DNA from: an uncultured Fibrobacterales bacterium | GTDB taxonomy: Bacteria > Fibrobacterota > Fibrobacteria > Fibrobacterales > CAWVXU01 | Length of the DNA stretch: 4,282 bases | Assembly (NCBI GenBank): GCA_963934255.1 | Contig: CAWVXU010000120.1 | Location: 1 to 4,282 of the forward strand | Direction of reading: 5' to 3' | In this document: piece after piece, positions 1 through 4,282 of the stretch | Layout of the letters: each line of letters opens with the position of its first letter | Position numbering within the stretch: the first letter of the stretch is position 1 | Made by a program: the position numbers

Positions 1-3000
1 GGAGGACTTGGTTCTTCAGGAGCCTCTGGTGTTTCAGGTGCACTAGGAGGGGTTACTTTAGTAGGCTTTTTTTTCGGTGGTTTAGGTGCTGGCTCCGGCG
101 GGATCTCTGGCTCAGAATCAGGAACCTCTATTTCAGGCTCAACCTCTTCTACTGGCGGCTGGGGTTTTCTCACTTTGGGTTTAATTTTGGGTGGAGGCGG
201 AACACTTACAAGCTCCATGATAGGAGGCAGAGGTAGCAACACATCTTCACTTTCAAATAAAGTTGAACTCCATATTGCAAGAAAAACCAAAGCATGAAAA
301 ACGACAGAAAACAAAAAAAGCTTCTTCCAATTAAGCTCTTTATCTGACTCAAGCCAAATACTCTGGCGTTGAACCTTAAAGTCAAGTTTATCAGGTGCAG
401 GAAGATTCAATCTATTCCTCAAGTATTCCGTTTTTAGTCAAAAACCCTACTTTAGTCACTCCTAAAGTTTGGATACGAGAAACAACTTTCATCACTTTGC
501 CATAGGGAACTTTTGCATCTGAATTTACTATGACAGCCGACTCGCCATCCCAATTGTTTTTGAAGACTTTGTTGAATTCAGATATTTTAACTCCACGATC
601 GGCGATAAAGAGTTTCTCCTCCTTATCAATTGATACGCGCAGTAATTGTTGATCTGCCATTGCAGGAGCTTCAGTTTTAGGGATATCCACTTTAATACCC
701 TTGGTCATCAAAGGGGCTGTGATCATAAAAACCACAAGGATGGCAAAAGTCACATCGACTAGATTGGTGACATTGAGCTCTTGATTGAGTTTCTTTTTGG
801 GAGACCGGCGTCTCATACGCTTTCCTCTGTTTTTTCAAGCGCCTGTAAATCACCACGTTTAAATAGTGTCAATAAATGTGATCCAAAATTATAATAGTGA
901 ACTTCATTTTTATTGTTTCTTGCTACGAAAAAATTATACGCTGCCGCTGCAGGTATGGCAACAATCAAACCACCTATAGTGGTAACAAGAGCCGCTGCAA
1001 TGCCAGGAGCCACTACACTTAATTCAGCCGAACCTTGAGCACCAATTTCGAAAAACGAAGTCATAATCCCCCAGACAGTTCCAAGCAAGCCTAAAAATGG
1101 AGCCAAAGATGACGTCATAGCAAGAAAGGTTAAGAGCCTCTCTTCTTCTATTTTATGAGTTTCGACACTTCGCTGAATCGCTTCTTCAAGTAGAGATGCA
1201 CGATGATGTATAGAATCGTAACTTACAAATCGAGACATTTGAGCCGCTTCGCTGAGTACATTTGTTGACACTACAACCAAGGGACCTCTCTTGTGCTTAG
1301 TTAACAATGCTCCCATTTCGTGGAAGTGTATGATCTTATCAAAATCCTTTGCAAAGCGCTTGGTCTTACTTCGTATCCCTCTATAGTACTTCACCTTGAG
1401 CAAAATAATACCCCAAACCACCAAAGACATCATGGCTAATATGGTGAGAATGATGGTGGCATAAAGGCCAGAGCCAAATATAAGATTGGATATATTCATT
1501 GAATTTTCCACTTGAACCTCAAATTGAAAGGATTTCAGCAAAAATACAAAGATTTAAAGTGTTATTGAGGAATAGATGTCGAAGTTTAAGAACCTTGACG
1601 AAGCTGAGCTTTGAGGTTTTCAACTTGAGTATTGAGTTGAGGGTTTCTAACGAGAGATTTCATCAAAGCACGCACACAATACTGTACAGTAGAATAGTCT
1701 TTATTAAAATGAAGACCAATGGTATGTAAACTATTATCCGTTAGAGCTCGGGCTAGGTACATCGCCACTTTACGAGGCACCATCACTTCTTTTTTACGTG
1801 ATTGAGATATAATGAGAGCAGGAGTCATTTTGTATTCATTGGCGACTAACTCAAGAATATTGTCGACAGAAATTTTGCGATGTAAATTACGACGTACATC
1901 ACCTAGAATAACTCTTGCAACATCTAAAGAGATTTCTCTTTTCATTATGTTCTTATATGCAAATAATTTGAGAATTATACCTTCAAGTTCACGTACATTA
2001 GATGTGTATCTTTGAGAAATAAATTCAATAACTTCACTAGGGAAATAATCTTGTCGACCAGCAGCTTGTTCAGCTTTTTGTTTGAGAATTTCATATCGGG
2101 TGGACTGATCTGGACGCTCCACATCGATTGTTATACCTTGATCAAAGTGACGAATGAGTCCTTGATGCAATCGAGAGTTCTTAACACAACGCACATCACT
2201 CGGCGATTGATCACAAGAGATGACAATTTGTTTGCCTCTTTGAACTAATATTTGTATCAATTCCATTAAGTGAACTTGAGTCTCTTTACCACGTGCGATA
2301 AATTGAATATCATCAATAAGAAGAAGATCTAAATCCGCATACTTCATTAGTGGATTTAAATTGCCGGACCCAATAGAAGAAACAAAGTGATTAAGTAACT
2401 CTTCGGAAGTAATATAAGAAGCGCGCTTGCATGTTTCGTTATCTAAAGAGTAATTTCCAATGGCATGCAATAAGTGGGTCTTACCAAGTCCAGTTGGACC
2501 AAAAATAATTAACGGGTTTGCGACAGACTGACCAGGACGGTCAGCAACATTCATCGAGGCTGTGTAGACATTTTGATTGGAACTGCCCTGAACAAATAAA
2601 TCAAAATTGAGATCTGCTTTAATATTTCCATCAAGGAGCTGCTTTTTGAGTGTTTTCCCTTTGAGAAATTGTTCTTCCGCAGTTGGAGCAACATAGACAC
2701 CAAATTTAGCATGGGCTTCAAGCTTTGCTGATTTATTTAATTCCGTCTCCTGGAGCTGAGATGACGGACTTCCGACTTGCACATCATAAATATTTGGTGT
2801 TTTGGGAATCTTAGGTTCGAATGATTTATTTATTTCAAATTGAACTGACACAGGTCTTTTTAAAATGATTGATAATTCATCTACAAGAGTTCCAAAAAAG
2901 TTTTCTTTGATAAAGTCTTTAATAAGGTCATTTTTAACAGCAATAGTAATTTGAGTTTCTTCGAAATTCTGAATTTCAGCTTGAAGCAAGAAAGACGTGA

Positions 3001-4282
3001 AATAAGGGAATTGCTGAAATTGATCAGAATTCTGTAGACGGCTACAAAGCGCCACCCAAAGACTTTCTCTTGACCATTCTTTCAACATACTATTAACACT
3101 CTCTTTAAAGACTTAATTTGAAGCAGTCAGCTGCTCCAACTCTAAGTTTAAAAAAGAATATTTAACGCATCAAGTACTTTCTCAATAAATTTATTGTCCT
3201 TTTTGGCTCAAATTCAACGTTTTTATGTTGCTATATCATTCAACCAAATAGGTCAAGCGTAAATATAATTTTTCAATCAACAATGAATCAACAGATTCAA
3301 CATCATCGCCTCCCCGTCTATTAACATTCAATAAACAGCCTAGTTAATTAAGATATCAAAGAAATTCAAGGCTTGTTTGGTAAAAAAATCACCCTTATGT
3401 CAATTAAATTAAAGACTGAAGAAAAACTTAAAGAAAAACCTCAAGTAGTTTCTTAGCAAATCCGAAATAGAAGTATAGGCAACAGAAAAGTAGGTTCATC
3501 ATGAATATTCATTCTTTAAATAACCAGGCGTCAACAGTTCCAAGTAGGACTCCAACAACAGACAATTACACTCGCGCTGATCAAGCAAACCCATCAAAAA
3601 GTCACACCAATAAGAATATTGATGGAGATGAGTATCTAGGGCCTAAAGAAGATAAGCTAATGACTGATTATGGTGAAAAAGTCGGACCCCAAAAACACTC
3701 ACATAATGATATGAAAGAAACAGATGAAGCTGAGAATAATCCGGTAAACACATTTAAAGACCAACTAGATGAGTTTCAAGCCCAAATCCGTAGAAAACTT
3801 CTCGATACCATCCTAGATTCAGTCGACCCAGCCACCAAGGCCATCCTACAAGGTGAATTTGCCAACGATCACGTACTTTATCAAGTGGACGAAGGAGTTG
3901 AAGCTGCCGAAGTGCCTGAAAACTGGAATGCAGAAAATACCAGCCAACGTATCGTTGATTTTGCTATGTCATTTGCGGGAGAAGACGCTGACCCTGAATT
4001 TTTAAATGAAATCCGTAATGCTGTGATGGAAGGCTTTGCCCAAGCCAAAGAAGTTCTTGGAAACATCCCTGGTGAATCTGGCAAACTCTTCAATGAGACT
4101 TATGAATCTGCTATGTCTAAATTTGATGCGATTTTAGAAAATATGAATTCAGAACCTACACTAGAAGAACAGGTTGCAGGAATGACTTCTCAAGAAATCG
4201 TCGCTCAAAACCCTTACTCTCAATCAAGCCCTACAATATCGGCACCTCATCACCAATTAGATTTGGCTGCCTAAAACCTTCG

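Follow-up and report, generated by a model that had tools for sequence, protein, structure and literature searches.

A second four-domain DnaA kept across Fibrobacterota, with a relaxed filament face and a box-arrayed leader

The dnaA2 gene (1586..3088, minus strand) in a 4,282-nucleotide stretch of DNA from an uncultured Fibrobacterales bacterium (contig CAWVXU010000120.1; the whole stretch analysed is hereafter the window) encodes a genuine second four-domain DnaA that is kept across Fibrobacterota. Read from the sequences, the copy number, clade, residue split, box arrays and origin position suggest that initiator functions were split after a duplication and that DnaA2 became a feedback-controlled modulator, a reading that has about an even chance of being correct. 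The 500-aa ORF has intact ATP-pocket residues and an altered box VII and Arg finger. It matches Bac_DnaA and Bac_DnaA_C above the Pfam cut-offs and DnaA_N weakly (E 6.5e-4; this domain is matched by 28/28 DnaA2 proteins), and it scores 359.6 against the curated cut-off of 343.9 with the DnaA initiator model TIGR00362, with domains I, III and IV all present. In an AF2 model (mean pLDDT 86.7), domain I is joined by a disordered linker to domains III-IV; DnaA structures are the best hits of this model in the PDB. A six-frame PF00308 search of the genome (G000) gives exactly two matches, on contigs C43 (DnaA1) and C120 (DnaA2), in agreement with the preliminary description of two full-length DnaA proteins about 35% identical (35.3% across residues 159-496); a third, Hda-like match was not found in this search.

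Among all 296 Fibrobacterota genomes, PF00308 has two matches in 246, one in 39, three in 6 and none in 5. The presence of two DnaA proteins throughout the phylum is borne out by the 172 good genomes (at least 90% complete and at most 5% contaminated by rounded quality figures; the unpublished G253 is counted in), 157 of which have two, 12 one and 3 three. The third DnaA of G286 is probably contamination, because the tree groups it with Gemmatimonadales rows. Lineages living on DnaA2 alone were considered and rejected: 8 of the 10 genomes apparently devoid of dnaA1 also lack the neighbouring dnaN; in G032, dnaN begins at a contig edge and, in G046, it lies on a 5.4-kb contig with no dnaA upstream. 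These cases are read as binning or assembly gaps, although this is not proven for G046. The sampled relatives mostly carry one DnaA: a single match in 41/41 genomes of the class of G296 and, in the phylum of G297, one domain-IV match in 38/41, two in 2 (identical-score or split copies) and none in 1. A DnaA2 common to neighbouring phyla was not found in these two groups.

In trees built without named paralogues from Chlamydia, Planctomycetes or Desulfovibrio, the DnaA2 proteins form a single clade (support 99.7/100), which 24 cluster representatives without taxonomy join among Fibrobacterota rows. The earlier notion of an ancient paralogue pair stands insofar as DnaA2 is phylum-wide, old and monophyletic, but a duplication inside the phylum is not established: in the best tree with 21 outgroups, DnaA1 joins Bacteroidota, Calditrichia and Marinimicrobia rows weakly (94.2/56), and the AU test rejects neither duplication history (p 0.34-0.69).

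The two paralogues differ in specific residues, counted here in 31 DnaA1, 31 DnaA2 and 79 outgroup proteins, in this order, and given in E. coli numbering; the roles of R281, R285, F46 and the six base-reading residues are those described in the accessible parts of PMC6127211, PMC10316083, PMC8287927 and PMC2533591, the last of which also provides the base-reading list. The ATPase motifs are kept in DnaA2, as previously noted: K178 (31/31/79), D235 (31/31/79), D269 (27/30/79) and R334 (27/30/79), represented in the window protein by Walker A K203, Walker B D259, sensor I D293 and sensor II R366. The filament face is relaxed in DnaA2 only: R281 (30/8/79), R285 (31/25/79), N255 (31/9/78) and R227 (22/5/59); W288 is found in 24 DnaA1, and the residues common at this position in DnaA2 do not include it. 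The window protein has G310 in place of box VII R281, H314 in place of the Arg finger R285, A251 for R227 and G267 for K243. The erosion of box VII is real but not confined to Fibrobacterales, where it had been described, R281 being kept in just 8/31 DnaA2 phylum-wide. The Arg finger is lost in 6/31 DnaA2, including G000, G189 and G225, and intact in 25/31, among them 15/15 outside class Fibrobacteria. Within-group conservation of domain III is 0.59 in DnaA2 vs 0.57 in DnaA1.

In domain IV, the box reader H434 (31/4/76) is changed in DnaA2, and R399 (31 DnaA1, 28 DnaA2) and D433 (30 and 26) stay. The reported replacement of this histidine by Tyr or Phe holds for Tyr, found in 26/31 DnaA2, but Phe occurs in none; His is kept in 4 and Ala is found in 1. 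Among the base-reading residues R399, P423, D433, H434, T435 and H439, the window protein retains the first (R431) and third (D464); the remaining four positions are H455, Y465, S466 and Y470. Outgroups also vary at P423.

In class Fibrobacteria (16 proteins per paralogue, with columns taken from an alignment at about 20-30% identity), domain I shows a further split. Position 50 is aromatic in 16/16 DnaA2, which is not the case for the four commonest DnaA1 residues, and F46 is present in 10 DnaA2, with mostly L, I or A in DnaA1; the helicase patch thus appears to be kept by DnaA2 and not by DnaA1. With a within-group identity of 0.27 vs 0.20, domain I of DnaA1 seems to represent a conserved new state rather than decay. 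Such a reciprocal pattern might be expected of an obligate two-subunit initiator in which DnaA1 opens the origin and DnaA2, in the same complex, recruits DnaB via domain I, both being essential. This possibility is also compatible with the near-universal retention, with the joint absence of dnaA1 and dnaN in 8/10 cases, which points to assembly gaps, and with the finding, in the available text of PMC6127211, that in E. coli only some of the protomers need to carry F46. However, outside class Fibrobacteria F46 is kept in both copies (10/15 and 13/15), so that the domain-I split was not the original reason for retention; furthermore, DciA is found in 5/5 genomes tested and the new state of DnaA1 domain I is itself conserved. 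An obligate pair is therefore unlikely.

The start codon of dnaA2 in the window is overlaid by a tandem DnaA-box pair (3079..3098, minus strand; boxes 3090-3098 and 3079-3087, with 2 mismatches each and an 11-bp period); of the 2972 candidate ATG positions in the genome, no other has one. DnaA2 genes of other classes carry the pair in the same register, and G064 and G066 likewise have it at the dnaA2 start. An upstream array of same-orientation degenerate boxes (3274..3326, minus strand) lies about 190-240 nt 5' of the ATG, with sites at 3274-3282, 3285-3293 and 3318-3326 (2 mismatches) and a more degenerate one at 3294-3302; its three matches to TGTTGAWTV, a pattern composed after the sites were seen, were equalled in 1/200 shuffles. 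The AT-rich (70%) intergenic control region, 3089..3500, is common to dnaA2 and the divergent gene; a promoter scan of it remained at chance level. Homologous box arrays occur in other dnaA2 leaders. The 31 dnaA2 leaders analysed contain 54 same-orientation TTATCAACA-type boxes (30 shuffles: mean 3.8, maximum 9), with 30 occurrences of the 11-bp spacing, and the exact box is present in 18/31 dnaA2 vs 1/31 dnaA1 leaders. At 1 mismatch, dnaA1 leaders have 7+6+6 boxes, exceeding shuffles. In G002, G005, G007 and G013, in-frame stops lie immediately 5' of the start-codon box, which therefore indicates constraint at the DNA level. Boxes are weak or missing in the dnaA2 leaders of G054, G059, G241, G250 and G274, and those of G000 each have at least 2 mismatches. 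Since a same-strand tandem box is found 635-735 nt upstream of the dnaA ATPase domain in 12/21 single-DnaA genomes of the Pedobacter phylum (Bacteroidota; one DnaA in 21/21 genomes checked), a box-bearing dnaA promoter is likely to be the ancestral state.

The proposal of another DNA target for DnaA2 is not supported, given that dnaA2 leaders and the oriC-like gaps between dnaA1 and dnaN share boxes dominated by TTATCAACA (A at position 6 in 61/76 and 36/45, respectively). A variant of this proposal, that Tyr434 reads TTATCAACA, is unsupported, as single-DnaA genomes of the Pedobacter phylum use TTATCAACA-type boxes too. A shift to A-type boxes in Fibrobacterota is real, with A-type halves making up 92/116 (79%) in tandem boxes of 121 Fibrobacterota vs 95/204 (47%) in 121 Pedobacter-phylum genomes, figures that are uncorrected for base composition; A-type boxes dominate beside dnaA also in a Spirochaete, a Smithella and one Bacilli locus. 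The suggested non-core or regulatory role fares better, considering the lost filament residues and the promoter covered in boxes.

Analysis of the genomic context reveals a divergent DUF5610-like gene (3501..4274, plus strand; below the Pfam cut-off, E 0.008), homologues of which flank dnaA2 in 7/30 other genomes and on a Chitinispirillum contig, across classes, within the flanks of about 1 kb searched. Directly downstream of dnaA2 is a tolQ/exbB-like gene (813..1541, minus strand), probably co-transcribed with it and linked to dnaA2 in 6/15 other Fibrobacteria genomes, followed by a tolR/exbD-like gene identified by family matches (412..816, minus strand) and by the start of a gene cut by the contig end (3..422, minus strand). 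Composition and position suggest that the latter encodes a proline-rich TolA/TonB-like membrane-anchored protein; profile searches gave no family match. The dnaA2 stretch of G189 occurs in 14 RNA runs, in contigs of 4-5 million letters, about the whole genome, which therefore cannot show dnaA2 expression.

These conserved neighbours would suit a dedicated ATP-sensing transcription factor that controls its own gene, the DUF5610-like gene and tolQRA, in a cell-cycle or envelope context, and takes no part in oriC work. The altered recognition helix, the loss of unwinding-related residues, the arrays that in several genomes closely follow promoter-like hexamers and overlie the start codon, and the exact tandem boxes found in five g8 genomes at a distance from bactofilin and the two dnaA genes are all compatible with such a factor. 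It is nevertheless distinctly unlikely, considering that oriC-like gaps and leaders share one box consensus, that DnaA1 alone could read the leader and that DnaA2 keeps the domain-I helicase patch.

GC skew is readable in four closed genomes, and in all of them the origin maps to parS-parAB, away from both dnaA genes; the skew switches once in each direction, and dnaA2 lies 0.7-1.6 Mb from the origin (G274 has no usable skew). The dnaA2 leader is ruled out as oriC for class Fibrobacteria by skew and parS. No DnaA-box cluster had previously been found in the draft genome, but a box-bearing oriC candidate exists at C28:2087-2712. The region immediately 3' of bactofilin in G274 and G281 and the surroundings of parS in G241 showed no box cluster, so that a sequence can be assigned to oriC only for G189 and G225 and, by synteny, for G000; a crude pattern detected no clear DnaA-trio run in five origin candidates. 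Neither dnaA2 nor the dnaA1 of class Fibrobacteria lies near oriC in rpmH-dnaA-dnaN order; in other classes, dnaA1 does have the classical rpmH-dnaA-dnaN context stated earlier, or the order dnaA-mnmG, and the gap is rich in boxes. These data bear on the possibility that DnaA2 is a second fully competent initiator, as a backup or for a second origin beside its own gene. The four domains with the DnaA_N and TIGR00362 matches, the AT-rich, box-bearing leader and the closed record of G189, which begins at dnaA2, would agree with this role, but the single skew switches, the distance from the origin and the loss of the Arg finger in 6/31 proteins, among them those of G000, G189 and G225, make it improbable.

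Hda and DnaC are DnaA-derived AAA+ proteins, and the function of Hda relies on its Arg finger. An Hda-like inactivator or DnaC-like helicase loader derived in the same way would fit the absence of an Hda-like match in G000, but it is very improbable for a protein that has full domains I and IV, lacks the Arg finger in the window, scores far below the cut-offs of Hda (TIGR03420, 76.3 vs 194.8 bits) and DnaC (NF005931, 19 vs 357 bits), and belongs to genomes with DciA, in the absence of which the DnaC/IstB loader is found (exclusivity as given in the accessible part of PMC5109545).

For DnaA2 as a feedback-controlled modulator, we infer the identity of the box binder, co-assembly, capping and the direction of control as follows. 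After the ancient duplication, the jobs of DnaA would have been divided: DnaA1, the core initiator, would read DnaA boxes and build the head-to-tail ATP filament that opens oriC, and DnaA2 would act within the DnaA1 circuit as an accessory ATP-binding protein. Having inherited the ancestral box-controlled dnaA promoter, DnaA2 would vary in level with DnaA occupancy. It may bind the same or overlapping boxes (TTATCAACA/TTATCCACA) and join DnaA1 oligomers via its intact ATP-pocket face; with the box VII/Arg-finger face relaxed or lost, it would extend them poorly and cap or tune the filament. Capping would not be universal, because 25/31 DnaA2 keep the Arg finger and domain III is equally conserved in both paralogues. 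In class Fibrobacteria, DnaA2 may also supply the domain-I helicase contact remodelled in DnaA1. A predicted DnaA1 x DnaA2 AAA+ complex is weakly supported, scoring 0.35 vs 0.02 for the best control, with at least 78% of contacts shared between runs and partner pLDDT of at least 85; the mark used is reached by 116/157 solved and 2/215 mismatched pairs, only 18 solved pairs and both mismatches falling at or below 0.60. This prediction is given no weight because the pair is cross-species (G000 DnaA1 with G001 DnaA2) and resembles solved DnaA filaments. A possible but doubtful extension is a heteromeric initiator analogous to ORC, in which DnaA1 would provide box reading and filament growth and DnaA2 would be feedback-controlled, filament-ending and, in class Fibrobacteria, helicase-recruiting, with both genes off oriC.

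The non-dnaA origin site, the relaxed filament face, the domain-I split and the box-arrayed dnaA2 leader are new; the retrieved portions of the literature on Fibrobacterota neither survey dnaA across the phylum nor describe a residue split, the architecture of the leader or the mapping of an origin. Fibrobacterota records starting at 'dnaA' may begin about 1.6 Mb from the real origin. Two complete dnaA genes in some bacteria have been noted without explanation in the literature searched; here, a reciprocal phylum pattern emerges, in which DnaA1 keeps the filament face and the locus, and DnaA2 the promoter covered in boxes and, in one class, also the helicase patch; specific residues, sites and an origin candidate are now available as targets.

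Hda (TIGR03420) and DnaC/IstB resemble DnaA2 as DnaA-derived ATPases with a non-initiator role, but they are devoid of domains I and IV, both present in DnaA2. According to the accessible parts of PMC3080875 and bioRxiv 10.1101/2025.08.05.668638, two dnaA genes are present in Chlamydia/Chlamydophila, Desulfovibrionia, Pirellula, Pedobacter, Salinibacter and one Fibrobacter, the last noted in 2011. In these genomes, as in Fibrobacterota, two complete dnaA genes are maintained together; as far as these sources go, the former are known from counts only, whereas Fibrobacterota now come with a residue split, leader architecture and origin mapping. Canonical DnaA (TIGR00362; B. subtilis 8BTG, E. coli) shares with DnaA2 the four domains, Walker A/B, sensors I and II, the HTH fold and R399/D433/T436, and the DnaA-box promoter of dnaA2 is reminiscent of canonical dnaA autorepression as described in the part of PMC2533591 consulted. 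Unlike canonical DnaA, DnaA2 is a second copy with relaxed R281, R227, N255 and W288, R285 lost in some lineages and mostly Tyr at H434, encoded by a gene unlinked from rpmH, dnaN and oriC.

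The ORF at window positions 1586–3088 (minus strand) encodes DnaA2, a 500-residue protein with Bac_DnaA and Bac_DnaA_C domains above the Pfam cut-offs and a TIGR00362 score narrowly above its cut-off. An AF2 model (pLDDT 86.7) predicts four DnaA domains, with solved DnaA structures as the best structural matches. The genome contains exactly two PF00308 matches, the other, DnaA1 on contig C43, being 35% identical to DnaA2. Thus, DnaA2 is a real feature, and the claim of the preliminary description that the genome encodes two full-length DnaAs holds, as does that of their retention across the phylum: among all 296 Fibrobacterota genomes, 246 have two PF00308 matches, 39 one, 6 three and 5 none, and exactly two are found in 157 of the 172 good genomes (at least 90% complete, at most 5% contaminated; quality figures rounded, and the unpublished G253 included in the counts). 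In 8 of the 10 checked genomes without DnaA1, dnaN is absent as well, which suggests assembly gaps. Two contigs are likely contaminants, one in G046 (L296; 5.4 kb, carrying dnaN with unrelated genes upstream) and one in G286 (L003), with a Gemmatimonadales-like dnaA. The sampled relatives are mostly single-copy; one Pedobacter genome has two copies.

Both copies from 31 genomes (our own and 30 chosen to spread over families) were used for phylogenetic analysis. A quick IQ-TREE run placed one copy per genome on each side (SH-aLRT 100), with Escherichia coli DnaA on the DnaA1 side. In a FastTree with 55 further named DnaAs, 30 of the 31 DnaA2 and one Chitinispirillum protein grouped (0.985), the very long G102 copy falling among DnaA1 rows; in a tree of 43 selected rows, long branches excluded, the support was 99.7/100, which bears out the previously described single DnaA2 clade. 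The latter tree intermixes DnaA1 with rows from Bacteroidota, Calditrichia and Marinimicrobia at weak support (94.2/56), and a topology constrained to unite DnaA1 with DnaA2 was not rejected (p 0.34–0.36; 5000 replicates, below the advised number). On these sequence comparisons, the split is therefore no younger than the phylum itself. By profile search, 24 cluster representatives were placed in the DnaA2 clade, in the midst of Fibrobacterota rows; they carry no taxonomy (10 looked up). Five proteins of 670–1990 residues (P0015, P0016, P0017, P0024 and P0147) have two DnaA-like ATPase stretches and score highly against the DnaA2 profile.

We give about an even chance to a division of labor in which DnaA1 would open the origin, and DnaA2, under box control, would join or compete at boxes through putative binding and might end filaments. 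Residues were compared in E. coli numbering (counts for 31 DnaA1, 31 DnaA2 and 79 outgroup proteins, in this order). The ATP pocket is intact in both copies, in agreement with the ATPase motifs reported earlier for DnaA2. Relaxation of the oligomer face is confined to DnaA2, with R281 of box VII at 30/8/79, R285 at 31/25/79, N255 at 31/9/78 and R227, which has a role at the interface, at 22/5/59; these four positions are G, H, Q and A, respectively, in the window protein. R285 is described as the arginine finger (PMC10316083, PMC8287927), R281 as a residue at the protomer interface (PMC6127211), and R399, D433 and H434 as base-reading (PMC2533591, PMC7561715). H434 counts are 31/4/76; the preliminary description gave Tyr or Phe here, and Tyr replaces it in 26 of 31 DnaA2, while three of the four that retain His carry D433N. 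The domain-I patch around F46/W50, described as the DnaB contact in E. coli in part of PMC6127211, is retained by DnaA2 in class Fibrobacteria (F in 10 and L in 5 of 16; position 50 aromatic in 16/16) and remodelled in DnaA1, and other classes retain it in both copies, although these counts come from a low-identity alignment and need care. In degenerate DnaA1 lineages (L072 from G059, L073 from G102, and L088), the sensor II Arg is replaced; the recognition motif in G059 is KSHATV in DnaA1 and RDHSTV in DnaA2, and these lineages have no boxes beside either gene. In G189 DnaA2 (L058), about 15 extra residues are inserted between sensor I and box VII; the window protein has 5 at the same site. 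An obligate two-subunit initiator formed by DnaA1 and DnaA2 appears rather unlikely. The predicted complex of the two scores weakly and is not weighed in the mechanism.

In the dnaA2 leaders, boxes of one orientation form an array some 200 nt upstream, and a tandem pair overlies the start codon. The leaders contain 54 same-orientation A-type boxes (of the TTATCAACA kind), compared to a mean of 3.8 and a maximum of 9 in shuffles, most commonly spaced by 11 bp (30 cases); an exact box is present in 18/31 dnaA2 leaders versus 1/31 dnaA1 leaders. Among the 31, boxes are missing or weak in those of G054, G059, G241, G250 and G274. In four genomes, in-frame stops precede the start-codon box, so that DNA rather than peptide is conserved. 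Of 2972 candidate starts in our genome, the dnaA2 ATG alone has such a pair over it, and this leader contains 2 of the 10 relaxed tandem pairs genome-wide. The same box dominates dnaA2 leaders and oriC-like gaps alike. Its assignment as the site of the Tyr variant was rejected because single-DnaA genomes of the Pedobacter phylum (Bacteroidota) use it too; in 12/21 of these, selected for an A-type match irrespective of position, the dnaA ATPase domain is preceded, at a distance of 635–735 nt, by a same-strand tandem box. On the simplest reading, dnaA2 inherited an ancestral box-controlled promoter; autorepression by DnaA via boxes situated downstream of its promoter is treated as established in a section of PMC2533591. 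At window 3501–4274, a gene for a DUF5610-like acidic protein conserved across classes is divergent from dnaA2, an arrangement shared by 8 other loci in different classes; in 6 other Fibrobacteria genomes, dnaA2 is followed by tolQ. Given this adjacency, the boxes may also time both genes. That DnaA2 is a pure transcription factor we consider improbable. In genus g8 (G108, G121, G163, G164 and G170), exact tandem TTATCAACA pairs lie away from both dnaA genes and from bactofilin, possibly as titration sites or regulon promoters; G418, from the phylum of G300, has 15 dispersed exact tandem DnaA-box pairs, far above its relatives.

In each closed genome, 20 stretches were sampled for GC skew. Single origin and terminus switches emerged for G189, G225, G241 and G281, and no usable signal for G274. 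The origin switch coincides with parS sites in all four. An rsmG-parA-parB-M23-bactofilin operon and a metallophosphoesterase gene border an AT-rich gap with boxes in G189 and G225, and in these two genomes the minimum of the skew falls at this gap or no more than 4 kb from it. No box cluster was detected in the stretches checked of G241, G274 and G281. The distances from the origin to dnaA1/dnaA2 are about 1750/1640 (G189), 630/960 (G225), 560/720 (G241) and 510/790 kb (G281), and dnaN lies 70–1080 kb away; thus, in these members of class Fibrobacteria, the classical cluster is dispersed off the parAB origin. The G189 record begins at dnaA2, near the terminus, which both dnaA genes flank. In other classes, the order around dnaA1 is mostly still rpmH-dnaA-dnaN or dnaA-mnmG, and a gap rich in boxes follows it. 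Contig C28 of our genome holds the same genes as the G189/G225 origin region, together with rpmH and three parS palindromes (C28:13260–13400); these palindromes are upstream of rsmG-parA-parB and separated by about 1.3 kb from rpmH-rnpA. The preliminary description had found no DnaA-box cluster in this draft; synteny alone points to a candidate oriC at C28:2087–2712, 74% AT with degenerate boxes, beside the same metallophosphoesterase gene. An ATP synthase operon separates it from the parAB-bactofilin operon, and dnaN and dciA are on contig C51, apart from the C28 parS. A second full initiator is a very improbable role for DnaA2, and an Hda- or DnaC-like one, against which the presence of DciA argues, is the least credible.

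In the full-text literature searched (most subscription papers and supplements being outside its scope), there was no study of the Fibrobacterota pair. PMC3080875 reports two dnaA copies in 12 genera, with one Fibrobacter genome among them, and bioRxiv 10.1101/2025.08.05.668638 names Desulfovibrionia and Chlamydiales as likewise possessing a second dnaA.
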